From positions 372,001 to 436,000 of the forward strand of contig JAPEUD010000007.1 in the NCBI GenBank assembly GCA_026026165.1: 64,000 nt of DNA, written 5' to 3'. This stretch comes from Sarea resinae. Taxonomy: Eukaryota. Each line of letters begins with the position of its first letter. Position 1 is the first letter of the stretch. Shown piece by piece: positions 6,932 through 37,421 of this stretch. The notes beneath the pieces are model-generated. The model was not told where the DNA came from, did no database searches, and worked only from the letters and a program-made list of their open reading frames with translations. The translations under genes and the position numbers were made by a program.

Positions 6932-8911
6932 TTAGATGGCTTTGGTGCGCGAGAACAAACTGCTGTAGACGGCGTCAACGACGGGCGTAGCGCTGATTTG
7001 TCTACCTCCAAAGAATCTGCCATTAAGACCCTTGATGGCGTTCTCTCCTCCTTGGACACTAGTAAATTTGAGATAGATATCTCCTTGGGTGTTTGGATCC
7101 AGTGCGATGTGAACGACGTGACCGTACTTCTCTTCGCATTCTGCGCGCACGTCATCTTCAAGTTCTTTGATCCAGGCATCACCTTCTTCTCTGTAATGAT
7201 ATTAGCAATCATACCTCTCAATGTATCCAGACAACTTACTCTGCGGGGTCGAACATATTCCTCAACACGACACACCTGCTGGCCATGCTGACATTGACAG
7301 GAAGGGGTTTTGTCTCGGTCCTAGGTTTGATTATTTTGCGCCTCTCGTCAGCACCGTTGGTTTCGGGAGCAGGCTCGTCTGTTCTTGCAAGCTTCCTCAT
7401 TAACGCATCTCTGCTGTAGTTGTTAAAATTCACACCAGCTACATCAGTGTCATCCAATGCGCTTGCTCCACCAGCACCTTTGTCGTTATCTCGGCCTCCG
7501 GCACGATCGAATGCGCCACCGCCGCCTCCGGCCTGAGCACCACGTCCTCCATGTCCCGAAAAGGCGGAGCCCTGGAAGTTCTGTTGGTTATGCTCTCGAC
7601 CTTGAAATCGTTGCAAGAGATTGGCGGTCGATTCAGGAGTGAACTTATCGTTGCCGAGGCCCACACGAATAGGACGACCAGCAAGGTCAAACCCATTCAT
7701 CTTTTCTAAAGCTTCACGAGCCTGATTGGGATCGCGGAACCTAGACTCAAATCAGTACTGAATCACGCAACCTTAGGAACCTTCCACTTACTGCACGAAA
7801 CCATAACCCCTACTGCGCCCTTGCTCTTCCTTCTGCAACTGCACAAATTCAAGCTCGCCGAACGGCTCAAACACATTCTGTAGATCGCTCTCAGTGATAC
7901 TGAAGTGGATATTTCCAACGTACAACCTATGGAAAGGAACCTGATTGGGGTTATTATGAGTAGTACCGTCTGTCGTTCGCGCTTGTCGATTTTTTTCCGC
8001 TTCGGTAAGTTGGGCAATGATGGGGATGCCTAGAAGCTTTTGGCCCGTAAGTTGGATAGCAAGTGGTACAGACTCTTCTTTCTTGAACTCGACATAGCCA
8101 ACACTATGATCGTTAGCATTCGCAAGATGAGAAGCAAGGGCTAGAGACCTCACCCTTTGGATCTGCCGCTGACCCTATCCTTTACAATTTGTGCCTCCTT
8201 AACAGGCCCCACTTTTTCAAAGAAGGCAATGAGCTCCTTCGTTCTTAATCGAGCTGCAAGTTGCTGAACGAAGACTGTTCGACGATCGCGCTCATCCTCT
8301 GTCGGCTGTGGGGATGCTGATCTGCTTTTGCCCCTCTTGGCAGACGGGCTTCGCCTTCGGCGCTCGTTCCGGCCTCGGCCGCTTCGACGGTCATCTCTAG
8401 CTCGATCGCCATCTCTGTCGTCACGATCGCGACGGCCTCCTCTTCCTGATGGTCGGTAGTATCTGTTTTCATCGGGAGACCTGGAACGGGTGCGAGGGCG
8501 GCCGGGGCCGCGATAGTAATCCCCACCCGATGACCTAAAAGCATCGTCTGGCTCAACAGAATCGCGGTGGTGGTCACGGCGAGAGTGGCGTCTGTCACTG
8601 TCTCGACTCCGGCTTCTCCTCTTACTTCTGTGGCTGCCATTAGCGCTGCCGCGATCACTTCTGGGGCTCTTCATCTCCAGGTCGCCATCTTCCTCTTTGG
8701 AAAGTCTAAGCTTATCGCGGCTGCGATCCCGTCGCTTTCGATCTCTGTCCCGGTCACGACTGCCATCACGATGGCGATCACGGTCCCGTCGATCATGTCT
8801 CTCGCTTTTATGGCGATCGTCACGATCGTTCAAGCGCGGTGACTGGCCTTGTTCGGGCGCAGCAGCATTTGCAGTAGAGTCGAGAAGTGCTTCGACGTCG
8901 AGACCTGACAT
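6932..8911 (-). CDS. pad-1: RNA splicing factor Pad-1 / RBM39 (CAPER/Rsd1) family: RS domain, two RRMs, UHM
   Basis: RS/RD-rich N-terminus; RRM1 ([12 protein letters not shown]...RSKGVGYVEF); RRM2 (RLYVGNIHF...RGYGFVQ); linker [27 protein letters not shown] ([10 protein letters not shown]...GRFFGGRQI). Three GT-AG introns. Confidence 0.93.
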
Positions 8912-9563
8912 ATTTGCAACCTGTTGGATACTGTGCTGCTGCGGCAAAAAGTGCGGATCTGGGAGGACGATTTCACTTTTCGGTCGATTAGAAGGGTTAA
9001 TCTAGATGAGGCGACCGATGCGAACCCTTTGAATTTGTTATCAGTACCCTTGATAGCAGAAGATTGCTAATGGGCTACGAGGAGCGACAGTTCAGCTGAG
9101 GTTGATTTCGATCTTCAGGTTAAATTCTGGTGAGGAGTAGAGGATGCGTGAAATGTGGTGAGTGGCTATCGGTGAGTGGATCGCAAGTGGATGGTCAGCA
9201 AGATCCAAGGTCAAATTTGGAGGTAGCCTAAGTATTATGCTGACTAAGCCTTGCGCGAGCAAGGCCCAACCACTAACCACCAGGAGGCATTCATACCGTA
9301 ATCATGAGCAGACCGAAGCGAACATTCACGACAGCTAATCGGCACCATCCAGATTCAATTTCAAAAAAGAGTGACTTGGATTATTATGTATGAGTCGTGA
9401 AGGGACAACTCGTAGTGTACAGGTAAAGAATGTCTGGCATATTTTCCCTGGAGCATTTTCGCCATGAGTCCCCAAAGCTTTGACGAATTCCTTGAACGCC
9501 GGCTTTGCATCACACGGCCGGCCATATGTTCCATAAAAGCGACCCTTAGCACCATCCCTATGC

Positions 9564-10855
9564 TTACGCTGCCTTCGCTGCTTTTGCGTCAATGATCTCG
9601 GTATCGAAGACCCAGTCCCAGAATTTACTGGTAACGCCAAAGCCGTGCTGGTAGTCCATAAAGTGATGCTCCAAATGATACTTCTTGAGCTCATGATAGA
9701 ATTTCGGGAGTCTAGTCGATTGTTCAGTAGATCTTCCAACCCAGGTGAGAAAAGAGAACTTACTGCGCGAAATGAAGGAAGTAGTGGGTCAAATCGTAGC
9801 AGATATAGCCAAAGATGCCACCGCAGAACACTGCAGTCGCAACATACCAGTTGTAAAAGAAGATAATATGCGCTAGCTTCCAGAAGGGAGTTGCCAGCAC
9901 AGTAAACAGAGTAGGAGGCATTACCAGACGATACTTGTCCATGGGGAGATAGTGGTGAACCCCATGGAGTAAGAAGTGCAAGGTGATGCCAAACCGATTG
10001 TTTGGAAGATAGCTGCTTCAATTAGTACCATGTTGTCACCTAGGAAGCAATGAACACTTACTAGTCCAGATGGAACAAGAACCTGTGGAGTATGTACTCG
10101 ATTAAAGTCCATAGCAAAAGCCCAGATGTCCAATATGCGGCAAATTGGGGGAAGCTAGACAGTCCCATGAAGGCGGTGAAAGAACCGTACAGCACCGGAG
10201 GCAACCAGACTGTCGGCACAACCCACCACGCAGTCAAGCTGATCGGTTCAAGGAAGTTCCCAAAGAGCGGCGCAGATGCTCCTCCCTTGTAATATCTGGG
10301 ACGATGGACTTGTTCCAAGTAGAAATCCTTTTCGAAGCCTCCAAAGAACACTTGCGGCAAGAGCGGACGGTTGAGATCGAGGAACTTGTGGACCTTATAA
10401 TCAGTCGTAATGTCGGTTTCCTTCTCGAGGTCCTCCACCGTTGACATGCCAGTGCTGGGATACAAGGGCTCGGCTCTCATAGCAACACCGTCGGCCGCTC
10501 CGTTTGACAGAAGCTCCTGTTTTCCTTCCTTCGATGGTGGCAGGGGGACAACGTTCGGCGGGTGGTCGCTCTTGGCGGCAGTCTCAATAACACCCTCGGT
10601 TGGCATGAAACCGACCAGACTGTCGTCGAGGATCTCATATGCCGCCTCGGAATGGACATGGGACGGTTCATCTTGCATAATCTCGGACACGTCTTTGCCT
10701 CCATATTGCAGAATCAGATCTCCACCGCCCGGATGATCATCAACAAACGAAGTGACATCAAACACCTTGGTTCCAATGGTAACATAGCATGAGTTTTTGT
10801 CATTATGGGACTCGACGTCCGTCTTAAGGATCGTGGGTAGAGTTTGGGCGGGCAT
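9564..10855 (-). CDS. SCS7: Sphingolipid fatty-acid alpha-hydroxylase (cytochrome b5 plus fatty acid hydroxylase domain)
   Basis: Cytochrome b5 HPGG motif; His boxes HRFLFH, HGVHH, HYFLH, HLEHH; last exon ends GFGVTSKFWDWVFDTE...AA*. Two GT-AG introns. Confidence 0.95.
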
Positions 10856-13800
10856 GGCGAGACGACGAGAGTGGTGCTCCGGGGTCGAAAGGAAAACTCA
10901 AGGGGAATGCTCGAAGAGACAAACTCGACAGGAAAGCTCAGCAGCGGGACGGCCGTGGAATTATTAAAAAGAACGCGACGGAACGGCTCTCCTCGATGAT
11001 CTGGCCGAGATTGCAGTAAAGAGAGGCAGCAAACTGGTCGTATGAGTGTCAGGAGAGCGTGAGAGAGAGGTACGCTGTACAGTGCGGTACAGCGAGTAGA
11101 GTACACAAATTCCTTTTTGTCGCTCGCCCCGTAGTAAGGAGAAGTGGCAAAAAAGTCCAGAACGGCCACTACGGAGTCGGGCGTCCGAGGCTCGCTATTG
11201 GTGGAGCGATGCGGTAGCCAGTTCGCTGGCTGGTACCGGTACTTGGAGCACGCCGCGGGCTGTGCTGGGCCGGAGTCACGGTACTGCCGGAACCCAAGGC
11301 GATGATAACGAGCCCTGGAGATTAAAGTTCCTGATCAGACGCTACTAACATGTCCTTTTGGTCTGGCTTTTGAGCCCAGGGCAGATGGGTACTCGACGGA
11401 GTACTCGAGGAAGGAGAATTAGGCTGATTGGGCTCGAGGTAGTCTGCCGTGCTCGAACCGTGCGGTGCAATTGCACGTATTCTTCATCTGCCACGGTGAA
11501 GGCATGCCGGATTCCGGAAGACTTGAGCAGCCGTTTCCAGAGTCGATCAAAGCTCCGTAGGTGGTACTATGCAGTACTCGAAGTAGTAAGAGAGATCCAT
11601 GATATCCGTGATCCATCCATCTGAGCTTACTCCGTAGAAGCAGATACCTTCTCGCAGTGGTCCGAGGGTCCTCTCCTGCCCTGCCCTGCTCTGCTCAAGT
11701 CCCAGATATCTTACCCATGGATACCTTGCCTTCCTTACCTGATGAAGAATCGGCCTGCCCCCGAAACTCTCCACTTTTACCTAAGCTTCCAGGTCGAGGT
11801 TCCTTTGAGAAAACAATCAGAAACATGTCGAGGGAGGAGCTCTCCATACCCGTAGAGTAAGGACTCGTCGCTCTTGATACTTCGGTCTGACCCCTTTGCT
11901 TCAGCCCGGGACATCAACAGTGACGGTAATGGGATGCCAGTCAGGGCCATGTTGAAACTTTGCCACGTATGTTTCTAATCAATACTGCCTACTGAGTAGG
12001 CATCAAATGGACGAGTCTGTTATATACACTTCGACGTCCAATTCGTAGCAATTGAACGCGTACGCAGTAAACATCCTCCTCAGCCTAACGCGTAATCATG
12101 CTGCTGCCGCAGATGAAATCCTCGATTGATTATTGGCAAGGATTACGATCATGGTACGGAATACGGAGTACTACAGTACTAATGTTGATACGAGTAGATC
12201 CGATTGCGCGACCAAGCCCAGGATGGCCACGATCAAGGTACGCCATACTGCTTAGAGAGGCTGGGAAAGGTTCATGGTAGGTACTGAGCACTTGATATAC
12301 GTGTACTTTGCCGCCCATAAACTAGTATTGACTACCTTATATCGACCTGAGTCATTGCGTGCCGTTCCTGCTTCGACCCCTCTGGCCTTTTCCTGATGTA
12401 GGCATTGCCCCTACCTAGGTATACTTCTTAGAAATCCTCCAGTCCGTGACGACGTAGGGCTTCAACGTTACCGCATGCAGGTGGAGCTTACGAAACAAAT
12501 GACGAAGCATTCAATGAGCAATGGCATCAATCATAGTCTTGGATCGGCTTATGCTGTCCAAAGGAAATTGTCATCCCGCTCGCCACGAAGTCGAAAGGGC
12601 AGTGGGATTATTGCAGTAGATTGCACCGGTAAAGGTCTAATGCACTCAGCAATCTGCCATGGATCTAGCCTCGATCAACTCTCAGATGCTTCCCGAGCAG
12701 TGGCCAAGGTATGCGGGCAAGGAGTGGGGAACATTATGGTATCGGTTGTAATATGTCTCAAGACTGATCTTCGCAGAGTAGCTCTTCCACTGCCTCGTCA
12801 ATCGGATTCTGGGGCAATGAGGTGAAGTCTTTATCTATAGTGCTGGCAGTATAGAGCATCCTCTCCATGCAGGGCCGTGGAGAGGAGTGTCCGCTCCTTT
12901 GACTCTTTTTTGTTTACCGTATAACATCCATTCCTTAATGTTCTTTTGCTCTTTTTTTTGTGTGCTTTCGCCTCTGCACTTTGAATCGGTCTTAGCAGTT
13001 GTGCTCGGGCAGACAGAATCGTTGAATATCCACCTGTCCTTTCCTTCTGTCTCTTCAAGGCCTGATTGAGCTCTGTTCCTAGTGGTCCTGTCAATATTAC
13101 TCAGTGTCTATCCTTCTGGCATCTGGAGCTCAACGGTCAGCAACACTCGATCCACCATATCTTAACCTCTTCTCACAAGGGGTCTGAAGGGACATATATG
13201 CGTTCTGGTGGCGCTGTTTCTTGAATTAGGTTTCATTGTCCTCCGCCATAAGTGGACTGGCATTCGATATCTGTTTCAGAAAGCGCTTAGGAACCTTCAA
13301 TGTTCGTCCATTGGTTGCGCTCGACCTTCGGCGGTGAACGGTCTTGCTGTTGCTCTCAGAGTATCTTGCGATGGGTGATGCTCGAGTCTGCGTGGCAATC
13401 CAATTGGATGGCCCTGGAACTCGCCCTGGGGAGAATGAGGCTAATCTCTCCAAGCCTTTCATTCTTTTGGGGTCCAACTGGCAGATGTTAGCGCCGTGAA
13501 CACTGTTGTTTTCAAAAAGAAATTGCCATGTCTGACAAGAAGTCCCCCACCATACAGCACCAATTGATCTTAATCAAAGACGAGAAGGGAAATTGAGAAG
13601 TATCGCTGATGTGTAAGGACGATTTAGCAGTGCTTTCAGTATTGAAGGATCATAACATAGGGGTATATGGAGCCTCAGAAGGGTGCATTTTGGTCAAAGC
13701 GGCTTGAAATATTGATTTGCTATGTCTGCATGCTCCTGTTCAGAAGTGCGTTCCCTGCAATATTCCACATACGCAGCGTGCTCTGGACTCGTGAAGCGTT

Positions 13801-14081
13801 TTCACAAGGCCTCGACCCGAAATGTCTTTGCAGCTAATGTTCACACTCGCACCTAATCACTACCGTCGTGATTAGTATTCTCCTTCAAGCCTGCTGAGCC
13901 CCAGAGGCTCTCCGCCTTGATCCCCTTTCATATCCTCTGTTTACCCCTTTCGAGAATTTCCCAAGAGCCCAGCAATACAAGCTTTCACACCGGTTCACGA
14001 CACAGTGTTAAGATCGTTCTACCGGCCTGAGGTTTCTCATCGAGCGTATCTGCCATTGCTTATCGCACAAGATAGAGCGCA

Positions 14082-16597
14082 ATGAGCGACGCATCAGTTA
14101 CCCTCGGCGACGCAGACTTGCTTAGTCTCTCGGCGCCTGACATACTAGGCACCGTCTCCTCTTCTTCACCTTCATCGAACCCTATCCTCTTCACACTCAG
14201 AACCTTAGATTCTGAGCAATCCCATTTCTCTGCCATCGCATCTCCAAACAGCTCAACCGCATCTCCAAACAATTCAACCCCATCTCCACATACTCTCTCA
14301 TCTTTCCTTCCAATAGCAGACTCGGGAAATATGCGTTCTTTTCGAGGACTCGATTCGAGAGCTCTAGAAGCCGATCTCATTACCGAGCAACAGACCATGA
14401 GGTCATCATCACCATCCGGGCAGTCCTCATCTGCCAAGTCTCCAGACAGCCAGGATGGGTTGAGCGATGACAATGATGATCGCACCTACATTGTAGGAGA
14501 AGGTTCTGACAGCTTTGTTGGAAGAGCCGCCACTCCAGAGAACGATGCAGTTGATGATCTCGGGACCAGATTTGCGCAGATCATCTTCGACGTGATCCCA
14601 TCGATCGAAAAGGGCGAGAATGGACCTAACATCATCCAAGGTCAACAAGATCGTTCCCAAGAACTTGATCCTGATAACGAGCCGCGCTACTCTTCGGAGA
14701 GTGACTCTGATCAGGAAGATTCTGGATCTAGGGAAGCACTACAAGATCGTCCGAACCGCACTCATCAAAGCCACAGTCCAAGTCGTCCTGAAGATTCCAA
14801 AGCTGATCCTGCTACAACTTCCGAGAGCACTGGTGGTAAGGAGACTTCCACGAACCCGAACCAGACGTCGAACATTGCAATGGCTCCACCGTCTGGCTTT
14901 CTGGGAAAGAAATCTCAAGTGCTTCACGGCTCATCCGCTCTGCACCCCTCAAAGCACACAACAGAGGATGATAAGCTCCAAGGAGCAAAGATGACTGACA
15001 GCCCTTTTGGACTCGATGGGGACTTCGTGTCCTCAATCTCGGAACGGGTCAAAACGCGTGTCCCTAGAGCAACACTCTTCGGCACTGCCACGAGAGCCTG
15101 TCAAACGACACAAGAGCAGCCCGTCGTCCCACCGACTCCGTTCCAACGGCCCGCCAGACGTCGCCCTCGTGCTGATGAGATTCCTTACTGTACGTGCGGC
15201 AGGCCTGACGACGGCAGTACCATGGTGCGATGCTCAAAGGTCAATGACTGTGGAATCAAATGGTATCACCTAGCATGCACGAACCTTGATCATGTTCCTG
15301 AGCCCAAAGGTAAGCTCTCTCTTCTCGTATTCTGTTCAGTATCTCGTCTTCGGGGTGTCCTTTTTGTATCGCTTTCTGGTCTTTTGTGCTCGCGTTCAGA
15401 ATTTCTCTTTTCTGTCAAGACGTTCCTTCACTTCTTTATTTCCTTTAATTCTTTTCTTTCCCCCTTTCCACACACTATCAATGGCCGATTACTAACATCT
15501 CCACCCGCGGCGTTTTAGAGCGATGGTACTGTCATAATTGCCAATTGAATATGGCGCTCGACGAGATCGGACCCTTGATCGGCACCCCTCTAGGACCCAC
15601 GATGATAGACGTGGTCGATGCAAGCTTGGATCGCTTCTACAACACCGGGGTTGTCGCTAGTCGTCAACTCCAGCGCCTCTATGCCAAGCTTGCTGATCTC
15701 GTCGATGATCCTTTCCATAAGCAATGGTTCGCGTCGCTTGCCAACCCTCGTGCCGATCGTGCTGCTGGTGCTGGTCATGGTGCCAATGATGCTGCTGGCA
15801 GGAATGTCGGTGGTAATGCCCCTGGCCGTGCCGTTCCAAATGTTCTTGCTCCCGCTGGGGCTAATAATCTCGGCCACTCTGGTGGCAATGTCTTCGGTCA
15901 ATCTGGGTCCAGTGCTGGTTCCGATTCCAGCGACAAAGTCTCTCTTCACGCTAGAGGCAATATCGCTGGTCTCCAGTCTTCCAGTCCTAGTCCTCATGCT
16001 GGAGGCAATGCCTTTGGTCACAGTCATGCCAATGTCGGTGCTCATGCTCTGGGCAATGTTGGTGGCCGCGCCCCTTTGGGTGACGTTGGTGACTTCCCGG
16101 CTGGACAGACCAGGCGTGTGGCTGAAGATGCTAGGGCTCGGGCTGATCTCCCTAGGGATCTGGCTGAAGCGAATAGAGCTTGGCCAATGTCCAACCTTCC
16201 CTCTCATCCTGATGTTTCTGCTCCTCGGTACGCTGGTCCTCATCCTGGAGACAGCAGAGGCAACGTCTTTGGTCCAGCTAAGGCCAACTCTGATCTTCGA
16301 GCCGTGAGCAGTGTCGGCCGTCAACTGATAGGTAACACTGATGGAAACGCCGCCGATGATCCTCGACCGAGCAACGTGAGATCTGATATCAGACACGCCG
16401 CCGCCTCCCTTGGACTCGAACCGGATCAGCAGGGAACCGCATGTGTGGGCACCGCCAATACGGCCGGCCCCGCCGCCCTCGCCGCCGCCGCCAACGCGGG
16501 GCTCGAGCAGCAGAGCCGGGATGACAGTCTTGATGATTCCTGCTCCGATGACGAGTACGATTCCTCCTCCTCGGATGATGAGGACAACGCCAACTGA
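14082..16597 (+). CDS. Low-complexity protein with one ING-type PHD finger
   Basis: Splicing 15310-15518 (GTAAGC...CTAAC...TAG) joins the two long ORFs and completes C4HC3: YCTCGRPDDGSTMVRCSKVNDCGIKWYHLACTNLDHVPEPKERWYCHNC. Confidence 0.8.
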
Positions 16598-18202: not shown

Positions 18203-21040
18203 CTACTCTTCGTCGGCCTCGAAAAAGGTCAAGATGGCATGGATGCCCTTGGTGCCCAGGCCATACTCGGGATAACACACATAGACCGGATCCTCGGTCG
18301 CGCCCAGCTTCTCCCGGAACTCGCCCTTGGCCGTCAGCTTCAGCTGCGAGGCGATGCTGTTGTAGCTGCGGGACAGGAACTTGACGCGGAAGCCGCTGAG
18401 ATTCTTGCCGGGCGTCAGCGTGGCCGTGGCGGCGCCGCCAAAGGTGACGCGCTTGGCGCCGGCCTCGCGCGCGACGTGCATCGCGTGGATGGTGATGTAC
18501 TCGATGGTGCCACCGGGTGCGCCCGGGAAGTCGAGCGAGTACTTGATCTGGTAGCCGTTCTGGGGCGCCAGCTGGGCCAGCACGATGAGCGCGCAGATCT
18601 TGCCCGAGGCGTCGCGCGCGTACGACACGATGCGGTGTTCCGGGTCGCGCCACGGGTGCAGCGCCGTCAGATGCACCTGCGTGCCCTTGCGGTTGGCCAG
18701 CCAATCCTTCATGCGCGCGTCGCACTCGCGCTGGATGTCATCCGGCACGATGGTGAAGGGGGCCACATCGAAGATCTTGACGCCCTCCTTTTCGGCGTGC
18801 CGCACCTTGCGCTTGATGGCCGGGTCGTCCTCGGCCGGATTCTTGGCCGGGTCGGCGCGCTCCTCGGCCGCGCACGACAGCGTGCGCCAGCCGAGCTTGT
18901 TGCCCAGGATCTCCTCGACGTCGCGGCTGGCAAGGAGCCAGACGGGCTTGAGGCCGTGCTTCTTCTTCAGCCACTGCAGAAAGGACCGCACCACGAGCGT
19001 GTATTGGGACTTCTCGCACAGCGGATCGCCGAGGATGCAGGCGAAGCCTTCCGAGGGCACGAAGCCGACGGCCGCGCCCGTGTCCTCGTGGCGCCACACT
19101 TGATAGCGGTCGTCGAGCCAAGCCGTGTTGGTGCTGTCGCCGTAGTTGGCGATGAGTTTCTCGAGCGGTTGGAATTCCTTGTCGAGCAGGGCCTCCAGCT
19201 TGCCGCCTTCCCATGGCGGGTGCAGGGTGCTTGCTTCCGGGTAGCGCAGCGGCGAGACCGGCGGCCGGGCCGGCAGCGACTTGGGGTCGCGTGGGAAGAG
19301 CGAGGCCCAGCGCACGTTGCCGAGAGCGAGGATGAGCATGACGATGCGCTCGAGGCCGATGCCGCCACCGGCGTGCGGAGGGGCGCCCCATCGGAAACCT
19401 TGCATGTAGTCTTCCATGTCGTTGGGATCGATGCCCTGTTTGCGCATGCGGGACTCGAGGAGCGTGGCGTCGTGGATGCGCTGGCCACCGGAGAGAATCT
19501 CCTGGCCACGCACGAAGATGTCATACGAGTTGGTGAAGCGATCGTCGTTGGGGTCAGGCATGGTGTAGAAAGGTCGAGGGGAGCTGGGGAATTTGTCGAG
19601 GATGTAGTAGTCGGTGTGGTACTTCTCCTTGACCAGCTGGCCGAGGCGGATCTCGTCGCGCGTGTGCAGATCTTCGTACGGGGACGGCTCCTTGCCGTCC
19701 TCGTCCTTCCAGCCGGAATCGATCAGCATCTGGATGCCCTCCTTGAAGGGAATGATGGGCGTCTGGTCCAGCCAAACGAGGTCCTCGTGCGGGAAGTGCT
19801 TCTTCACCACGTCCACTTCGCGTCGATAGCGCTCGTAGATTCCCTTGAAGACGAACTTCAAGGCATTGTCGATCATGGTCAGGGCTTCGTGGTAGTGCTC
19901 CTCGATGGACATTTCGATATCCAGCCCCGTGTATTCCGTCAGATGTCGGTGGGTATTACTGTTCTCGGCACGGAAGATCGGGCCCACTTCATAGACCCTC
20001 TCCATATCCGCAGCGATGCACATCTGCTTGGCCAATTGCGGGCTCTGCGCCAGATAGGCCGGCCGGCCGAAATAGTTGACTTCGAAGACGCTCGAACCGG
20101 ACTCGGTTGCCGAGCCTTGCAGTTTGGGCGTATGGATCTCGACAAAACCTTGCGAGTCGAGGTAGGTACGGAAGAGATTGCAGACGCCCGAATTGATTCG
20201 GAAGACACCCTGCGAGGTCGGAGTACGAAGGTCGATGATGCGGTTGAAGAGAAGCGTTCGGTCGGTGATGTGGCTCTTGTGGTGCTGCTCGTTGTCCTTG
20301 TCTCGCGACAGTTCGGCCTCGTAGACGTTGAAGGGCAGTGGTTCCGTCATCTGCGTGACGATGTGAATCTTCTCGATGAAGACCTCGGCGTCGTGGATCT
20401 GCGCGCCTTTGACTTCCTCCTTCGGCTTCTGCACGACACCGGTGACGAGCACGATGGCTTCGGCCGGGATCCGTTCGGCCCACTTGACCATGTGCGGGGT
20501 GATGGCACCGGCGCGCGCCAGGAGCACACCTTGAATGGTCATGAGCTGCTGGCGAAAGACGAAGAAGCCGAGCTTGGCGCTCATCTTGCGGAAGGTCTCG
20601 ACGCGGCATCGGAAGGTGATGGTCTCGCCGATGTTTTTGGATGAGATGGTATCGATCTGCGTGCGCTTCTCGTGCTTCCAGTCCTCGTCCTTGGACACGA
20701 GTAGCGGCAGCGTGCCATAACGCGCGCGCACCTCGGGCGGCTCCTCTTTGGCCGCGCGCTCGTCTTCCTCGCGCTTCCGATCTTCGACTTCGCGTTCGCG
20801 CATGAGACTCTGCCGACGCTTGAAATCCTGCGATTCTCTCTTGTTATGCCGTCTCAACTGGCTCTTGCTCATGCGCTCGCCATTCTCGTTCAGCGGTCCG
20901 TCGCTGTCCGACGACGAGGACGGCTCCGACTCGCGGACCTTGGCGACGGCCTTGTGCTCCGCCCTCTGCTCGGCATGGTTATAGACAATGTCCTTGCCGT
21001 TCGACTTGAACTTGGACAGGGCTCTTCTCAGGGCCGACAT
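18203..21040 (-). CDS. erdS: Aspartyl-tRNA synthetase fused to a DUF2156/aminoacyl-transferase domain: ergosteryl-3beta-O-aspartate synthase
   Basis: Intronless 945-aa ORF. OB-fold anticodon domain, class II motif 1 (GFVEIHTPKL), AYLAQSPQL, motif 2 (FRAENSNTHRHLTEY) and motif 3 (GGGIGLER). After RDPK comes a ~350-aa extension (LIANYGDSTNTAW, LGDPLC, GAPGGTIE, FREKLGA) resembling the MprF/LPG-synthase C-terminal domain. Confidence 0.93.
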   Translation of the reverse strand: MSALRRALSKFKSNGKDIVYNHAEQRAEHKAVAKVRESEPSSSSDSDGPLNENGERMSKSQLRRHNKRESQDFKRRQSLMREREVEDRKREEDERAAKEEPPEVRARYGTLPLLVSKDEDWKHEKRTQIDTISSKNIGETITFRCRVETFRKMSAKLGFFVFRQQLMTIQGVLLARAGAITPHMVKWAERIPAEAIVLVTGVVQKPKEEVKGAQIHDAEVFIEKIHIVTQMTEPLPFNVYEAELSRDKDNEQHHKSHITDRTLLFNRIIDLRTPTSQGVFRINSGVCNLFRTYLDSQGFVEIHTPKLQGSATESGSSVFEVNYFGRPAYLAQSPQLAKQMCIAADMERVYEVGPIFRAENSNTHRHLTEYTGLDIEMSIEEHYHEALTMIDNALKFVFKGIYERYRREVDVVKKHFPHEDLVWLDQTPIIPFKEGIQMLIDSGWKDEDGKEPSPYEDLHTRDEIRLGQLVKEKYHTDYYILDKFPSSPRPFYTMPDPNDDRFTNSYDIFVRGQEILSGGQRIHDATLLESRMRKQGIDPNDMEDYMQGFRWGAPPHAGGGIGLERIVMLILALGNVRWASLFPRDPKSLPARPPVSPLRYPEASTLHPPWEGGKLEALLDKEFQPLEKLIANYGDSTNTAWLDDRYQVWRHEDTGAAVGFVPSEGFACILGDPLCEKSQYTLVVRSFLQWLKKKHGLKPVWLLASRDVEEILGNKLGWRTLSCAAEERADPAKNPAEDDPAIKRKVRHAEKEGVKIFDVAPFTIVPDDIQRECDARMKDWLANRKGTQVHLTALHPWRDPEHRIVSYARDASGKICALIVLAQLAPQNGYQIKYSLDFPGAPGGTIEYITIHAMHVAREAGAKRVTFGGAATATLTPGKNLSGFRVKFLSRSYNSIASQLKLTAKGEFREKLGATEDPVYVCYPEYGLGTKGIHAILTFFEADEE

Positions 21041-22406
21041 GGCGCTCGACGGGTGTCCTGATCGTTGCGCCTCGCTGCGATGTGTCTGGAAGACAATTGC
21101 GATGGAAAGGAACGGGAAGCAGCAGTGGCGGGATTAAAGAGGAAAGAAGAGTCGAAGGGGGATGCACAACCGGAAATTGTGAGGATCCGGGGGGCTGCAG
21201 ATTGTGCGTGCGTGTGATGTCAGAGCAGGATGATGGGCTGGGACCCGGGGGGGGGGGGGGGGGAGCACCTCAGATATTATCTGGGATGAGTAAGGCACGG
21301 TCAGGAAAAAGGAGCCCGTCGGCGGTCTTCGGTCGGGCACTGATTGGCCCGTGTCAAGTCCGACGGCGATGGGAATGGGATGCTGAATAAGAACGTTGAC
21401 GATTCAAGAGAAGGCGAAGGAGAAGATTCACGATGCTACTAGTAGTGCGTGTAATAACGACGAGGACGAAGACGCTGACTACGACGTAGTGACGGACTCG
21501 CCGGTCGTCTTACTCGTCGGCCGTTGCGAGGTACCCGTCACGCCCGCTAGAGGCGACTTGATTACTTAGCACGGCCGCCGGAAGAGAGGGTCCGGCCTCT
21601 CCCCATGGAGTCATTCATTGATCGTGAAGACGACCAGAACAGGAAGACTCAGAGGCAGCGGCAGAAGCATCCAGAAGAACGAAAAGCCTCAATGATCCCA
21701 TGATCCCATGATTCCATGATGCCCCCTCTGCATCTTCCTCATCATTGAGGGATTCGTGGACCGTGAGAATCATCTCGATCTCCGATGGGCGAGAAGATTC
21801 TTGCAGGTTGCACCTATTTTGGTCGAGCCCGTCCGCGGCCGGGATCTGTAATTGCGACGCTTCGACCTGCAGTAGCCGGTACCTGGCCCGAGGAGCTCTC
21901 GACGCGGCAGAGACAAGTACCCAGCACATGCCGCGACCCGACGCAGCCGTGTCGGACCGAGGACTGCCTGACATGCATGGATACAGAATATGAAGTACAT
22001 TCCTCTCCTGCGTCGTGGTGGTGTCAGATCAGGTACCAGTCACCCAAGCTTCCGCACGGTCCTCACTCGGTGCGCTTGCTTCCCCTGGCTCGGCCGAGGA
22101 GGGCAATCATGGAGGGATGCCTTGTACATAGTAGTAGAGTACCGTACAGCTACGGCAACTCCGGCGCTCAATTGGATTTGTCGCAGTCTCGCATTCGGCG
22201 TCAAACGCTGACGCTGCTCATTCGTGCCGTGAGTCATGCTTCTCCCTGGCCGCAGCTGCTCGACATTTGTGCGCGGGCACATCTTTGTGCTCGAGGAGAA
22301 CATACTGCGTAATTCGACCATCATCCTCGGCTGTCGGAGTCCAAGGCTGCCGACATCGTACCTGCTGAAGGTATTCGTACACTGCCGTGTCAGACGGTTG
22401 GTCACT

Positions 22407-22531
22407 TGACGTGGGTGGCCGTCAGCGCTCGTCAGCTCTCCCGTCGTCAGCTCTCCCGTCGTCAGCTCTCGTCAGCGCTCGTCACTTCTCGTCACTTCTC
22501 CTCAATTCCCCCTCGTCGTCTCTTTATATAA
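22407..22531 (+). promoter_or_regulatory. Tandem CGTCA/TGACG half-site array followed by TATATAA in the erdS-erdH intergenic region
   Basis: TGACG at 22407; CGTCA at 22420, 22430, 22445, 22460, 22470, 22480 and 22490; TATATAA at 22525-22531. Confidence 0.5.
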
Positions 22532-23367
22532 GGCTCGCCGGTGCGCCGTCGCGATGATGCGGGTACCGATGGCTTTCTTTCGTGGGTGGGTCTCGTGGGA
22601 GTGCTCTCGTATCGTCTTTCACTTTCTCTCCGCTGCATCCGCCCGCTCTCCTCTCGAGACGTGATGATGCAAATGCAACACCCAAGGGTACCTCTCGAGG
22701 CAGCCAAACATGCTCGGAGATGAGGTACTGTATGTATCTACCGTATCTGTCTACTTACTCCAATGCTACTTTATTTGCTGGCATACTGCTTCAACCATAG
22801 TCAAGAATTGAGGATTATTAATCCCTTTCCAGCTTCTTCCGTGTGAGACTTATATAGAGCCAGGGGCGTCATCTCGCGACATGGCCTGGATGGACAGGAT
22901 GCAGCTCTGTCCATCATCATTCTTGACCTTCTCCTTTGGGATCTGCCTTCCATCCGCCTCCGGCACCATCCCGAATCAGCGACGTTTGGCGGTCTTGACC
23001 TCCGGTACCTCCGTACCGCATTGCCTCCTGCGGACGACCAGATCCCCCCAAGGGCAGTGCCCTGGCTGAGTCAGCGGTCGTCTGCGCTGCCCACGATGCG
23101 ACGACGCGTGTGTGCCCTAACCATGTGGGGATTGGGCCTGCTGCTTGCGGTAATGTGCAGCGTCATCGTGCTGGTAGGTGATCGTGATTGATCTGATGTT
23201 CGTCTGATGTTGTCCATGTCCACGCTCGCCGTCCCCAACGCGGAGAGTGACATAGCATCCATTGCGTTGGCCAAGCGTCCCAACTGATCCTCTCTCCACA
23301 CCCCCTTATCACGACCCTTATCTCCCCTTTCTCGCTCCGTACTACCGTACCCTTTCGTTTCATCACC

Positions 23368-23398
<31 letters not shown>

Positions 23399-23554
23399 TC
23401 TCCAATGCCATCCTGCTTGGTGGACGACGACAACGACAGCAACAACAACAATAACAATCATAACAAAGAAGTCATACTGATGTGGACATACCAAACCTCA
23501 TACTAGAATTACCATCACCCTTCTCCAGCTCTAGCCTCCGTCACCCCTCCGACA

Positions 23555-24742
23555 ATGGCTACCACTCAAGCCACGGCGGGTCCCAGCGGCCACCGAAGAA
23601 ATAAAACAATCGACACCATCGCCTCCGTAGCCGACCCACGGCGGTCCTCGGTCATCATTCCCACCAAGGCCGAACTCAGGCACTTGTCCAAGGCGCCCTC
23701 GCGGTGGTATCTCCGTATGCAGGCGCTGTGGTGGCGCGTCCTGATGTCCTGGGGCATGTTCTTCCATCGACTGCCCTCGCCTCGCCCTCCCCACCCGTCC
23801 TTTTCCCGCGTGGTCTCGTCGACGGTGTCGCCGACGCCGGGAACCTTTAAACTGCAATTCTACACGCCGGCCAACTACACGATGCGCGAGCCCGACCGGC
23901 GCTTCCCCGTCGTCGTCAACTTCCACGGCGGCGGCTTCACCATCGGCACGGCCACCGACGACGCCCGCTTCGCCCACCGCATCATCAACGACGTGCCGGC
24001 CGTCTTCGTGTCGGTCGAGTACCGTCTGGCGCCCGAGTATCCATTCCCGACGGCGGTCGAGGACGGCGTCGACGCGATTCTGTATTTGGTCGACCACGCC
24101 GACGAGCTGGGCATCGACCCGATGAACATCGCGCTCACGGGCTTCTCGGCCGGCGGCAACCTCGCATTCACCGTGCCGCTGAAGCTGCACGACCGCACGC
24201 TGATCTCGCGGCACTCGGTCGACCTGGGCGCCGTCAACTCGGGCTCGCAGGGCTGGGACATCAAGGCCATTGTGGCCTGGTACCCGGCGACGGACTGCAC
24301 CAAGACGCGGGCGCAGCGGCGGGCGGCCAATCCGCGGCCCGACAAGCACGTGCCGTCGTACCTGACCGACCTCTTCGACTTCTCGTACCTGCCGTCGGTG
24401 ACAGACCAGCGTGCGCTGTCAGACCCGTACCTGTCGCCGGGCGTGGCCCCAGACGCCATCCTCAAGCACCTGCCAGCCGACATCTCCATCTACGCGTGCG
24501 AGTGGGACATGCTGCTGGGCGAGGCGCAGCGGTTCTCGCATCGGCTGCGCGACGACGCGGGCAAGAACGTCAAGTTCAACGTCATCGAGGGCGTGCACCA
24601 CGCCTGGGACAAGAGCCCGAATCCCTTTTCGCTGCATCCCGCCACCATGGGCCGGTACAAGCTGGCGTGCGAGGATCTGAAGAAGGCCTTTGAGGGCGTC
24701 GAGTGGGTCAGTGACATTGAAGATTTCAAGGAGAGCGTTTAG
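23555..24742 (+). CDS. erdH: HSL-family alpha/beta hydrolase, probable ergosteryl-aspartate hydrolase
   Basis: Intronless 395-aa ORF with HGGGF oxyanion motif, YRLAPEYPFP, GFSAGG nucleophile elbow, EWDML (Asp) and HHAWD (His). Divergent from erdS, as in the described locus. Confidence 0.87.
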   Translation: MATTQATAGPSGHRRNKTIDTIASVADPRRSSVIIPTKAELRHLSKAPSRWYLRMQALWWRVLMSWGMFFHRLPSPRPPHPSFSRVVSSTVSPTPGTFKLQFYTPANYTMREPDRRFPVVVNFHGGGFTIGTATDDARFAHRIINDVPAVFVSVEYRLAPEYPFPTAVEDGVDAILYLVDHADELGIDPMNIALTGFSAGGNLAFTVPLKLHDRTLISRHSVDLGAVNSGSQGWDIKAIVAWYPATDCTKTRAQRRAANPRPDKHVPSYLTDLFDFSYLPSVTDQRALSDPYLSPGVAPDAILKHLPADISIYACEWDMLLGEAQRFSHRLRDDAGKNVKFNVIEGVHHAWDKSPNPFSLHPATMGRYKLACEDLKKAFEGVEWVSDIEDFKESV

Positions 24743-26893: not shown

Positions 26894-29046
26894 CTATTCG
26901 TGAGCGATGATGCCGCCCAAATATCCCAACTCGTCAAAGAGCTGCTGCAGAGTCGAGGATCTCTGATCTGGATACTGAGTATCGGTATAACTATGATGGT
27001 GATGGTGGCTCAACCCGATCTTGGGCTCGTTCTCGTGCGTAGTGTGGCCATGGCCATGTTGCTGGTGCAAAAGCCTAGGCTCGTCTTCGTGCTCATCCGG
27101 CCACATGTCCATGAAGCCGTGGCCATCGAGGTCGATATCCAGACGCTCGATTTGCGGGGGCGAGACATCAGACGTTCTACCCCGACTCTTCTTCTCCCCG
27201 CCCTTCAACGTTAGCTCGGAGGCATGCTCCTCTTCCGGTAGTGTATACCCCTTAAAATGACCGAACCCGAAACAGGCCGCCTTGCGTTTCTCCCCGGCCT
27301 TGTCGATCCGAAGTCCTGCGAGCGATGAGATGGGCCCGCCGTCGTCTATGCATGATACGTTGTCATTGGGTGCCGACAGAGGCTCGGGTACTTCCAAGCT
27401 AGATTCTCGTTCGGGAGTCTTGTCGTCCTCGCTGAAGTCGCTCATGGATGGGGTCGTCTGGTCAGAAGTGTAGCCGAAGCGGCAGCCGGGGCTGTTGGAG
27501 TCTTCGGTTGTGGAGCTAAACGACGGTGATGTGGGGTGGAAAGGCGGACAGGATCTTGGTGGGGAAGCAAAGGTTGAAGTACTGTAGACGGAGAAGTGGC
27601 TTCGAATGGGAGGGGAAGACGAGGCGGGTTCTGCGGGCAGGGGAGGAGCGACGTAGTCTAAACTCGGTGGAGGTGAGGATGCGGCGTGGTGTGAGTGTAG
27701 TCGGGATGTGTACGGCAGTGGCGCCTCGGGTTGAGATGATTTGGTGGGTATGCTGAGAGGCTCAGGCATTAACGAAAGGAGAGGCTCGAAAGGAATGTCT
27801 GGCAATTCTTTGTTCAGGATATCGTGAGTTGGGGACGCTTCTCTCTGATGCTGGTATGGCCGTGGTGCCAGGCCATGCTGGCAAGGTGCCTCCTCCTGTA
27901 GACCATCAAGAGAAGCCCGGCTGTCAAAATCATCGCCATCATCCGGCGTCTTGGCCACATCCTGCAAAGATATCAACGCCATTGAAGATCCAGCACTCCT
28001 ATCCTGTCTCAAAGGTGACGGTTCTCTGCACCTGGCTGGCGGACGGAAAGTAAGCTGTGGGCTTGTGACACTTTGGCGCATTATCAGCGGCGGTGTATCC
28101 TGGGTGGGTGTGCGGCGGGACGATTGGACTGAAGATACCGGCTTCCAGGACGCAAAATAAGGTCTCTCATCCGTGCGGCCAATCAGCATGGGGCTACTAA
28201 TTTCCATATCCGCTTCTCTACCCCAGTACCCGCGGCGGCCAGACAAAGGATTCGTCTCAGCATATGCCGAGTGGGGAGCCCTGCTGGCAGTTCCTGTCCC
28301 ACGAGGAGCATGGAGCGTCGGTGATCCCGGCCGCATGCAGTCTTCCGATTGTTTGCGCGACAGTAAACGGCTAAAGTTGATGGTGCTTCCCGGGTAAGGA
28401 GAAGACTTAATGGACCTCTCTGCTGGTGGCGGACGGACCTCGCAACGCTTTCTCTCCATCGAAGCCGGGGATGTTGTAAGGCGAGGTAGCTTGGGCACCG
28501 GCACCGCCCTCGGTGCAAGATACTTGTCGTCAGGATTCATGGTCCGGGTAGCCACTCGTGAATCACTGCGACCCCTTCGCTCTTCGGATTCGGCTTCGAT
28601 AGGAACGTCGAGGACATTGACTGGCTGTCCAGGAAGGAAAGGGCATGCCGTGGTAGATGGCTCGCTGGGGTTATGATGCTCAACATCATGGTCAAGCCGG
28701 TACTAGCAAGACGTAAGAAACTGCAGTAATAAAAGTCGGCATGGCGGTACGCACATAGTACCAATATCGTCCCCCCATCTTCAGGCCTCCTTCTCTTCTC
28801 CCACCAGGTAATTGAGGATCGCCATCACAGATGATGTTCTCGAATGAATGACACCCACGCCAGTGTCCTCGACCTTTGCGTGGATCTTTCTGCATTGGAT
28901 ATGGTTTGCAGAAGTTGTCCCAAGAACCCAGCAGATGAGCGGATTGTACCGACGGTGCCGTTTGACTATACAAAGTCAATTCAATGTCTCGAAGAACATG
29001 AAGACTCCACTTACAGCATAAACGTAACGAGAGTGGTCAACTCCAT
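26894..29046 (-). CDS. Fungal hypothetical protein with an N-terminal CBM48/AMPK-beta-like domain and a long Ser/Pro-rich tail
   Basis: Start MELTTLVTFM, intron, then AHLLGSWDNF...GHWRGCHSF...GGLKMGGRYWYY, intron, then HNPSEPSTTACPFLPGQSVNVLDVP, continuing into the 553-aa ORF that ends QQLFDELGYLGGII. Confidence 0.72.
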
Positions 29047-34565: not shown

Positions 34566-35989
34566 CTAATCATCAATGCTCCGCACGTTTGTGGACGTGA
34601 CACCAACATCTCCAGTCTTCTTTTCAAACTCTGTTTCAATGACGCCTGATTCTTCATCAAAGCTGGGATTGGTGCTGGATTCAGAGTTCATAGCCTTCGC
34701 CTTCAGAAAAGGCCAGTGGCCTCGTCTTTCCTTGTATCGCATTGCGAGGAAGCCAAGCATGATGACGACCCAGTAAAGGTTGTATCCGATGACTGTTCCA
34801 TAAGTCGCAGAGTTCTCCCAACCGAGAATAGCGTTGAAGATACCCCAGCCGCCGCCGCCATTGACCTCAGCATTACAGCACTGGGCTCAGATGTCAGCAC
34901 AAGACTAACAAAAAGGCTTACGCCAATACTAATTCGAAGCTTACATTGACATGCCAGACACTCTGACGGATATCATAGGAACCAGGGCCCGAACCAGTCT
35001 CGGAGGCATCCCCTCCAGTGAGACTACTCCACTGTGATTTCGTCAGCTTTTCGCTCTTCAATGCGTTATGGTATGCAAGCCAGGCCACATACCGCATGAT
35101 TCTCAAAGTACCAGATGGCCTTGGAGAAGAGACCAGCAGCAACCAGATATAAGAAGCATGTTGAAACGATCAAAAACACCTGGATTGGCGCGTGGTTACC
35201 ACCCCTAGCAAAAGATCAGCTTCATGAGGAGTGTAGAAGAGGCAAAATCACCCACTTATAGATCAAGAAGCCGATGGCGAAGCCAGCAAGCAGTCCACAG
35301 ACCACGGCAAGAGGGAAGGCCGTGGCGGGTAGACCAAGACTTACGCCTCCGATGAAGACGACTGCTTCAAGACCTTCTCGGAGGACCGTGATGAAAGGGA
35401 GAAGGAACATGGCATATTTCTCTGCCCAAAGCTTCAGCCGGGCGCCGATGCGGCCCTGAGTAAATTTGCTCTTCTCCTTGGCCTCAAGGGCTTTGGCCAG
35501 CTTGACTCGCCACTTGTCTTGGAGCTTTGATACCCGCAGGAGCGCGGCGCCCATCATAGAGATGACGAGGGAAGCAATGAGACCAAAGGAACCTTCCCAG
35601 ATGTCTTCCGTATTCGAGAAATGATCTTTCCCCAGCCCATAGAAGGCTCCGATCATCCCGGCACCGATACAGATACATATTACCAAGCCTAATGCGGTAC
35701 CAAACCAGACCTTGAGCCAAGTCTTAGCATCCTCGCTGTCACGAAAACGAAGCGTGGAAAGACAATCGCTTTTTCACGGAGAATGTTTACCTGTCTGACA
35801 AGTTTTCTATATACTATTGGATCCTTGTCAGGGCCCAAAGTCTGCTTGATAAATGCGAGAAGCACAGAGACAATGATGCTTGTTTCAAGCGTCTCACGGA
35901 AGCAGATGAAGAAGACTGTAAATGTGTTAGCTGGGGCTCGATCAACAATATCGTGGATCCTTACTCGGAACGGCAAAGACGGCCACCAT
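34566..35989 (-). CDS. FTR1: High-affinity iron permease
   Basis: Start MVAVFAVP at 35989; two REXXE motifs (RETLE, REGLE); [37 protein letters not shown]. Five GT-AG introns. Confidence 0.95.
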
Positions 35990-36111
35990 CTTTGCAACTT
36001 CACAACAGCGTGCTGCAAATGGATCGAAGGAATACAGAAAGATGAAGGACTATGAAACCTTGCAGGCAGATTATGAGTGTTGATCACCCCGACAAGGTCA
36101 GCACGAGTCTG

Positions 36112-37284: not shown

Positions 37285-37421
37285 CATCATCTGTCTTCAA
37301 GAGTCACTGGTCAAACTCAGCGTCCGTTGATCAATAAGGACTCTCAATCATAGAGGCCTTTCACGAAAACCCTACTCGAAATATTTGAAGGGCAAGGCTC
37401 TCTTCTAACACTTCATACCCC

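Follow-up and report, generated by a model that had tools for sequence, protein, structure and literature searches.

A probable orthologous copy of the fungal ErdS/ErdH sterol-aspartylation gene pair in Sarea resinae

The 64-kb stretch of Sarea resinae DNA that was analysed (hereafter the window) contains two long open reading frames on opposite strands, which at first sight encode an aspartyl-tRNA synthetase (AspRS) and a lipase. The locus raises the question of whether these are housekeeping proteins that happen to be neighbours or whether they form the tRNA-dependent system in which ErdS esterifies ergosterol with aspartate and ErdH removes the modification, as the original prediction held. 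The two frames are arranged head-to-head, with 2514 bp between their start codons. Both begin with ATG and are open over their full length, and their ends were recovered exactly as noted earlier (Table 1).

Table 1. Coordinates of the features of the locus within the 64-kb window.
Feature	Position	Strand	Description or basis
erdS	18203..21040	-	Intronless 945-aa ORF, stop included; probable ergosteryl-3beta-O-L-aspartate synthase orthologue
N-terminal extension of ErdS, residues 1–105, with a putative charged helix	20726..21040	-	Translation and 9W9F alignment
Anticodon-binding OB fold of ErdS, residues 146–227	20360..20605	-	Sub-threshold Pfam match; within alignments to yeast AspRS 1asy and to 9W9F
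Class II AspRS catalytic core of ErdS, residues 262–585	19286..20257	-	Pfam tRNA-synt_2; AspRS structure matches
Aminoacyl-tRNA transferase domain of ErdS (DUF2156/LPG_synthase_C), residues 634–901	18338..19141	-	Pfam PF09924
Shared divergent upstream region, 2514 bp	21041..23554		Gene arrangement
erdH	23555..24742	+	Intronless 395-aa ORF, stop included; probable Erg-Asp hydrolase orthologue

The reference for the comparison was the system of Aspergillus fumigatus, which comprises ErdS (AFUA_1g02570; PDB 9W9E, 9W9F and 9W9G) and ErdH (AFUA_1g02580), the ergosteryl-aspartate (Erg-Asp) hydrolase with KEGG entry K24279. The data-availability passage of PMC13219428 links the cryo-EM structure 9W9F to A. 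fumigatus ErdS. Publication of the system dates from 2020, when its synteny and its distribution over Dikarya were also described (PMC7334510), in agreement with the earlier statement that the class is not new; orthologues in Dikarya number in the hundreds. The accompanying statement that its physiological role is poorly understood has been overtaken by a 2026 paper, which reports structure, mechanism and phenotypes for ErdS (PMC13219428).

Pfam searches of the 945-residue protein placed an N-terminal AspRS and a DUF2156 domain on a single polypeptide. The tRNA-synt_2 match covered profile positions 4–307 of 308 (E = 3e-74), and the catalytic core matched yeast and human AspRS structures with E values of 1e-135 to 1e-150. 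Yeast cytosolic AspRS (Dps1; PDB 1ASY/1EOV) aligned as a whole enzyme with residues 105–589 (E = 3.2e-150). The translation shows a QSPQ string as well as strings that correspond to the motifs of class II synthetases. The anticodon-binding OB fold scored under the Pfam cut-off (tRNA_anti-codon, E = 0.0031; 17.9 bits compared with 27). Unlike canonical cytosolic AspRS, the protein continues into a C-terminal transferase domain of roughly 350 residues, which was identified as LPG_synthase_C (PF09924, DUF2156 family; E = 8.5e-22, 78 bits, cut-off 27.5), and homology to the 9W9F transferase extends to approximately residue 941. The full class II AspRS and the extra MprF-like domain proposed for this gene were thus both recovered.

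The similarity to A. fumigatus ErdS extends over the entire protein. Residues 4–941 aligned end to end with residues 3–946 of 9W9F (1217 bits, E = 0) with only short gaps, the total lengths being 945 and 947 residues, respectively, and the two enzymes share the order of N-terminal helix, anticodon-binding domain, AspRS core and double-GNAT transferase. Because this match has an E value of 0, a chance origin of the features of both genes is excluded. Across 119 AspRS–DUF2156 fusion proteins, identity to S. resinae ErdS ranged from 58 to 64%, with values of approximately 58–59% for relatives from Aspergillus section Fumigati. The closest named species among the matches listed was Xylona heveae TC161, represented by an 'aspartyl-tRNA synthetase' (P0122; 64% identity) and an 'alpha/beta-hydrolase' (P0002; 58%). 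Within the charged N-terminal region, residues 57–66 read M-S-K-S-Q-L-R-R-H-N, so that SKSQLRR at positions 58–64 resembles the xSKxxLKKxx motif with Arg-Arg in place of Lys-Lys. In A. fumigatus, this motif lies in the N-terminal helix that clamps the tRNA elbow (PMC13219428), and by analogy the S. resinae segment may serve the same purpose.

Two known groups of enzymes invite comparison. Bacterial MprF and other aminoacyl-phosphatidylglycerol synthases also have a transferase domain of Pfam family PF09924; in these systems it moves an aminoacyl residue from aminoacyl-tRNA onto a membrane lipid, and a hydrolase gene is located nearby (PMC7334510). The S. resinae protein nevertheless differs from them in its eukaryotic host, in having AspRS as the N-terminal partner with no membrane flippase domain detected by Pfam, and in the fusion of the transferase to the synthetase that supplies its substrate. 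Moreover, the ErdS acceptor is a sterol, bound in a pocket that is regarded as unlike others in the transferase family (PMC13219428). With an AspRS rather than an integral-membrane (flippase) domain as its N-terminal partner, S. resinae ErdS falls outside the MprF group, whose transferase is fused to such a domain and acts on phosphatidylglycerol. ErgS, the ergosteryl-3beta-O-glycine synthase of Ascomycota, is a further DUF2156 transferase, which modifies ergosterol with an amino acid taken from aminoacyl-tRNA. It is unfused and captures Gly-tRNA(Gly) released by GlyRS (PMC8913301), whereas S. resinae ErdS carries its own AspRS.

Functional residues were compared position by position with A. 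fumigatus ErdS. All eight residues of the CCA pocket (W785, R789, K790, G791, Q793, H795, F913 and K916), the mutation of which lowered activity in A. fumigatus (PMC13219428), are identical in S. resinae (W780, R784, K785, G786, Q788, H790, F908 and K911), and the proposed catalytic pair H795/R914 is kept as H790/R909. The positively charged alpha(+) helix, which sits between the two GNAT folds in the Aspergillus enzyme (PMC13219428), contains R744, K745, R747 and H748 at the positions of R749, K750, R752 and R753; most sequences (104 of 120) have His at the fourth of these positions.

Of the 16 sterol-pocket residues given in PMC13219428, 11 are identical in S. resinae, including Q836, K838, W645 and D647. 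Because Asn at the S642 position and Asp at the N677 position are majority states (108 and 89 of 120 sequences, respectively), only two pocket positions are unusual. These are Ala640 at the S644 position, where Ala occurs in 2 of 120 sequences and Ser in 117, and Ala793 at the E798 position, where Ala is again found in 2 of 120, namely S. resinae and Xylona heveae. The latter species, unlike S. resinae, retains Ser at the S644 position and has His at that of K790. The Ala640 column is also one of eight, out of 214 columns at least 97% conserved in the other sequences, at which S. resinae ErdS deviates, which places it among the more divergent of the sequences (median 1; rank 115 of 120).

These observations bear on the possibility that the protein, though a genuine ErdS relative, is less active or has a shifted sterol preference. 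Such a reading would invoke all four substitutions, the rarity of the two alanines and the eight deviating columns. It would also draw on the A. fumigatus S644A mutant, which showed the strongest activity loss of the sterol-pocket mutants bar Q836R, with an Erg-Asp/PE ratio below 0.5 compared with 1.42 for the wild type, and on a section title of the same paper describing ErdS as 'highly promiscuous' in sterol aspartylation (PMC13219428). We regard it as distinctly unlikely, given that two of the four substitutions are common, that Q836, K838, H795 and R914 are intact, that Ser-to-Ala is a small change and that 11 of the 16 pocket mutants had slight or non-significant effects (PMC13219428). 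It is similarly unlikely that the pocket has drifted in this little-sampled lineage near Xylonomycetes such that another 3beta-hydroxysterol is preferred or the rate is much lower. Were this so, the enzyme would be a natural specificity variant for mapping the sterol-binding site, for which there is so far no structure with bound sterol. In any event, the locus offers a naturally occurring Ser-to-Ala exchange at one of the pocket residues probed by mutagenesis in PMC13219428.

The second protein was assigned to Abhydrolase_3 (PF07859) over residues 120–351 of 395 (E = 2.4e-46), and its matches among PDB sequences included family-IV esterases as well as hormone-sensitive lipase (8zvq, E = 7.8e-22). 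The triad S198, D318 and H349 is invariant in 120 of 120 relatives, and the HGGG motif at 124–127 is nearly so (H124, G126 and G127 in 120 of 120; G125 in 118). The triad of A. fumigatus ErdH consists of S153, D277 and H307 (PMC7334510), which gives spacings of 124 and 30 residues compared with 120 and 31 in S. resinae. As A. fumigatus and Neurospora crassa ErdH were not among the 120 matches listed, the comparison with Aspergillus was performed through a stand-in, the metagenome locus L060. In this Aspergillus-like (Eurotiales-like) locus, ErdS shares 79.5% identity with its A. udagawae counterpart and lies head-to-head with a 336-residue esterase that has S151, D274 and H304, within 2–3 residues of the A. 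fumigatus positions. The L060 esterase is 48% identical to that of S. resinae over residues 49–380 of the latter (1e-99). Residues 1–48 constitute a lineage-specific N-terminal extension, which distinguishes S. resinae ErdH from the A. fumigatus protein and from the 339-residue Xylona heveae ErdH.

The S. resinae esterase thus belongs, on sequence grounds, to the same orthologous group as the esterases that divergently adjoin ErdS in other fungi. An HSL-family esterase with an intact triad, facing the synthase gene, had been predicted, and this description stands, as does its relation to the Aspergillus hydrolase within the bounds of the stand-in. The epithet 'divergent hydrolase' is apt for the orientation of the gene but not for its sequence, which is typical of the family and departs from the other members at 1 of 69 highly conserved columns. 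A decayed state of one or both genes would accord with the above-average deviation of ErdS at conserved columns, but is hardly credible given two full-length frames free of frameshifts and stops, an alignment of ErdS with 9W9F interrupted by short gaps only, and intact catalytic residues in both proteins.

Pairing of the two genes was examined in 80 metagenome loci fetched by esterase family. An ErdS homologue was also present in 17 of these, lying upstream and on the opposite strand in every case, although the 17 include near-duplicates, for example L006 and L014. For 40 of the loci, more than 3 kb of sequence upstream of the esterase was present, and in 25 of these the fetched flanks contained no ErdS. 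In named genomes, the locus tags of the ErdS and ErdH matches are consecutive in Piccolia ochrophora (002432/002433) and differ by three in Candelaria pacifica (002627/002630). The size of the longest contig, which is only a proxy for contig identity, agrees between the two matches in Xylona heveae and differs in several named Dothideomycetes. Universal erdS–erdH synteny was consequently rejected on the basis of the 25 loci and the differing Dothideomycetes contigs.

The pairing also bears on the housekeeping alternative, namely a cytosolic AspRS with a passive extra domain next to an unrelated general lipase. Several database sources do label the relatives 'aspartate--tRNA ligase, cytoplasmic' and 'alpha/beta hydrolase', S. 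resinae ErdS has an intact AspRS core, and Aspergillus ErdS complements a yeast AspRS deletion (PMC13219428). This reading is nonetheless very improbable. Every transferase residue shown by mutation to be critical is retained, a pattern that points to selection for transferase activity; esterases of this family stand head-to-head with ErdS in the 17 loci, which appear independent apart from the near-duplicates; and all ErdS-bearing fungi are said to retain a separate AspRS (PMC13219428). Two sources use the names 'ergosteryl-3beta-O-L-aspartate synthase' and 'putative ergosteryl-3beta-O-L-aspartate hydrolase' for relatives. Within the window, neither a second AspRS-like stretch (tblastn) nor any tRNA gene, including one for tRNA(Asp) (ARAGORN), was detected.

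We therefore consider the locus to be an ordinary orthologous copy of the fungal ErdS/ErdH system, with a probability of roughly 0.9 as judged from sequence. The architecture, orthology, residue conservation and gene arrangement are present in S. resinae itself, and together they match the ErdS/ErdH architecture originally proposed: a synthase alignable throughout with 9W9F, its transferase residues intact, and an Abhydrolase_3 esterase with a Ser-Asp-His triad as divergent neighbour, as in A. fumigatus. The chemistry, tRNA hand-over and physiological role would follow by analogy with work on Aspergillus and Neurospora. ErdS is predicted to act as a dimer, the AspRS core of which would charge tRNA(Asp) with aspartate. 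The N-terminal helix would grip the tRNA elbow while the CCA end moves over to the double-GNAT domain at the C terminus. There, according to the proposed mechanism, His790 would act as the base on the ergosterol 3beta-OH and Arg909 would stabilise the oxyanion, yielding ergosteryl-3beta-O-L-aspartate. ErdH, as a putative family-IV (HSL-type) serine esterase acting through S198, D318 and H349, would hydrolyse this ester, so that the two proteins would be writer and eraser of a sterol modification. By the same analogy, the pair may contribute to hyphal growth, sporulation and germination.

As the system has already been published, the locus adds one new, ordinary case from a member of the Pezizomycotina and matters little beyond correct annotation. 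The useful outcome is the labelling of the pair as erdS and erdH, since several database sources call the relatives by the plain synthetase and hydrolase names given above. The locus also extends the documented range of tRNA-dependent sterol aspartylation by one lineage, with Xylona heveae as the nearest named relative.

The region between the two genes, at 2.5 kb, is a further difference from A. fumigatus. It presumably acts as a bidirectional promoter, to judge from the gene arrangement. Three ORFs of 137–181 residues within it had no Pfam match, and neither blastn nor tblastx detected similarity to the 80 metagenome loci, including the 17 with erdS; on these searches, the idea that the spacer hides a gene or a conserved element was rejected. 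Inspection of the spacer by eye revealed a short run of near-repeats at approximately 22420–22500.

Judged by its sequence, the erdS–erdH locus is a plain orthologue of a system that has already been published, has a solved structure and is widely distributed, and that is unstudied in this lineage. The interpretation of the pair as ErdS and ErdH put forward in the original prediction is supported by the end-to-end alignment of the synthase with 9W9F, a cryo-EM structure of A. fumigatus ErdS, by the functional residues kept in it, and by a related esterase that lies next to an Aspergillus-like ErdS in metagenome locus L060. Pfam and PDB searches were run with both proteins, and their matches bear out the earlier description of the two proteins and their arrangement, including the HSL-type relatives of the esterase, with ORF ends exact for both genes. 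Feature coordinates and profile scores are collected in the table.

Features of the erdS–erdH locus and of the surrounding window (nucleotide positions refer to the window; residue positions to the 945-aa ErdS or the 395-aa ErdH)
Feature	Position	Strand	Details
erdS ORF	18203-21040	-	945 aa, uninterrupted
Anticodon-binding OB fold	ErdS residues 146-227		Pfam, sub-threshold
Class II AspRS/LysRS/AsnRS core	ErdS residues 262-585		Pfam E 3e-74, essentially whole profile
LPG_synthase_C (PF09924, DUF2156 family)	ErdS residues 634-901		Pfam E 8.5e-22, 78 bits vs cut-off 27.5
erdH ORF	23555-24742	+	395 aa, uninterrupted
Abhydrolase_3 (PF07859) esterase	395-aa protein		Pfam E 2.4e-46
PP2C phosphatase	3-1691	-	runs off the window's start
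RBM39-like RRM protein	7236-9001	-	
Cytochrome b5-domain protein	10061-10897	-	
FTR1-family iron permease	35222-36228	-	E 7e-41 and 1.3e-06 for its two ORF pieces
Multicopper oxidase	37389-39123	+	three ORF pieces: Cu-oxidase_3, Cu-oxidase, Cu-oxidase_2
Fungal_trans transcription factor	48543-49715	+	

The C-terminal part of the window's ErdS, which had been predicted to be DUF2156-like, matched the PF09924 profile, and yeast AspRS (1ASY) aligned over its whole length to residues 105–589 (E 3.2e-150). The PDB sequence search returned 9W9E, 9W9F and 9W9G (862–947 residues), which PMC13219428 (Nat Commun 2026) identifies as A. fumigatus ErdS solved by cryo-EM, both by itself and together with tRNA(Asp); residues 4–941 of the window's protein aligned to residues 3–946 of the 9W9F chain (1217 bits). 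Two relatives bear the record name "ergosteryl-3beta-O-L-aspartate synthase". Since the residue numbers in PMC13219428 match the letters of the 9W9F chain, the functional residues reported there were mapped by hand onto the window's ErdS via this alignment, and then checked by MAFFT alignment of the protein with its 119 best homologues. The CCA pocket is identical at 8/8 residues (W780, R784, K785, G786, Q788, H790, F908 and K911); according to PMC13219428, mutation of the A. fumigatus pocket residues (W785, R789, K790, G791, Q793, H795, F913 and K916) cut activity, and H795 and R914 are proposed as the general base and the oxyanion-stabilising residue, respectively. In the window's ErdS, these two correspond to H790 and R909, and the basic alpha(+) helix comprises R744, K745, R747 and H748, with His at the last position being the majority state (104/120 sequences), and residues 58–64 of the N-terminal extension, S-K-S-Q-L-R-R, come near xSKxxLKKxx, the motif given in PMC13219428 for the tRNA-elbow clamp.

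In the sterol pocket, 11 of the 16 positions taken from PMC13219428 carry the same residue as A. fumigatus. Of the five differences, Asn at the S642 position (108/120) and Asp at the N677 position (89/120) are majority states among homologues, and Asp at the E712 position is common (30/120). Ala793, at the E798 position, is rare (2/120) and common to the window's ErdS and Xylona; also rare is Ala640 at the S644 position (2/120, the second carrier being a Tulasnella protein), which is occupied by Ser in 117 sequences. With Q836R set aside, engineered S644A had, as reported in PMC13219428, the strongest effect of any mutant in the pocket; its ergosteryl-aspartate/PE ratio fell below 0.5, vs 1.42 for the wild type. 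Among 214 conserved columns, defined as those at ≥97% in the other 119 ErdS sequences, the window's protein deviates at eight (R263L, F329Y, V355I, A488P, H600Y, S640A, Y805V and H879K), which ranks it 115 of 120 (median 1, range 0–9). Its best named relative among the matches listed, from Xylona heveae (Xylonomycetes), is only 64% identical. The deviations are not evidence of decay; they fit a long, poorly sampled branch and leave room for a possible quantitative or specificity difference. The only mildly interesting detail of the locus is the naturally occurring Ala640, at a pocket position whose function has been probed.

Among the ErdS relatives listed, full-length AspRS–DUF2156 proteins with 59–60% identity were found in Lepraria neglecta and Lecanora helva, whose placement in the Lecanoromycetes was confirmed; Mycoblastus, Bacidia and Lasallia, also listed, are genera that we take to belong to the same class. 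Lecanoromycetes are named in PMC7334510 among the lineages without ErdS, a gap that newer genomes seem to overturn, with contamination possible for some records, which are labelled MAG.

The nearest solved relatives of the window's esterase, the putative ErdH, are family-IV/HSL-type esterases, hormone-sensitive lipase among them, and PF07859 is present in all 120 of its best relatives, two of which are JGI records named "putative ergosteryl-3beta-O-L-aspartate hydrolase". In a 12-sequence alignment, conservation begins at R50/W51, followed by a hydrophobic, Pro-rich N-terminal segment and by the blocks HGGG (124–127), G-F-S198-A-G-G, E-W-D318 and H349. The triad and H124, G126 and G127 are invariant in 120/120 sequences and G125 is kept in 118/120, the window's esterase being off at one of 69 highly conserved columns (W139F). 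Its first 48 residues (23555–23698, +) are without a counterpart in most relatives. No in-frame ATG lies between M1 and the conserved R50/W51 block; M1 is therefore the likely start, and the N-terminal extension is lineage-specific.

Orthology of ErdH was tested through gene neighbourhood: the esterase alignment was used to scan metagenomes, which yielded 80 loci, some of them near-duplicates (e.g. L006 and L014). An ErdS homologue was found by tblastn with the window's ErdS in 17 of the 80, always upstream of the esterase and on the opposite strand. By hand count, 40 loci have more than 3 kb upstream of the esterase, 15 with ErdS and 25 without; two further loci with ErdS, L012 and L039, fall short of this flank length. 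In L060, ErdS shares 79.5% identity with the Aspergillus udagawae protein, and the 336-aa esterase beside it carries Ser151, Asp274 and His304, at most three residues from S153, D277 and H307, the A. fumigatus ErdH triad whose mutation, as reported in PMC7334510, abolished hydrolysis of ergosteryl-3beta-O-L-aspartate. Taking the L060 esterase as a stand-in for A. fumigatus ErdH, the window's esterase is 48% identical to it (E 1e-99). Linkage of erdS and erdH is not universal. The longest contigs of the ErdS and ErdH matches are equal in size in Xylona and unequal in several named Dothideomycetes, and the two genes carry neighbouring locus tags in Piccolia (002432/002433) and tags that differ by three in Candelaria (002627/002630); cases of interspaced genes were noted in 2020 (PMC7334510).

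From published work (PMC7334510 and PMC13219428), we infer for the window's proteins that the AspRS core of ErdS would produce Asp-tRNA(Asp), that its N-terminal helix would hold the tRNA on the enzyme while the CCA end is passed to the transferase domain, and that the conserved His would activate the ergosterol 3beta-OH for attack on the aminoacyl ester, a modification that ErdH would reverse. Going by the same papers, the physiological role, originally called poorly understood, is less obscure than assumed.

The two genes are divergent, with 2514 bp between start codons, and introns need not be assumed for either. In the spacer, no ORF is recognised by Pfam, tRNA genes are absent and no stretch is conserved with the metagenome loci; at 2.5 kb it lies at the long end, the distance between aligned parts being 782 to 2341 bp in the 15 ErdS-bearing loci with more than 3 kb upstream (hand calculation). 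By eye, a short run of near-repeats with units resembling cgtcagctct / cgtcacttct (22420–22500, +) and a G17 homopolymer tract (~21247–21263) were seen in it. A second AspRS-like stretch is absent from the 64-kb window; by the rule given in the literature, fungi with ErdS all retain a separate AspRS. The PP2C, RBM39-like, cytochrome b5 and Fungal_trans genes are ordinary fungal neighbours, and the long ORFs 2634–4439 (-), 14076–16597 (+), 26894–28702 (-), 49730–51403 (+) and 52653–54830 (+) gave no Pfam match. The window also contains a divergent FTR1-family iron permease and multicopper oxidase, both apparently intron-split, which we take to be the Ftr1/Fet3 pair, the classic system of fungi for high-affinity reductive iron uptake.
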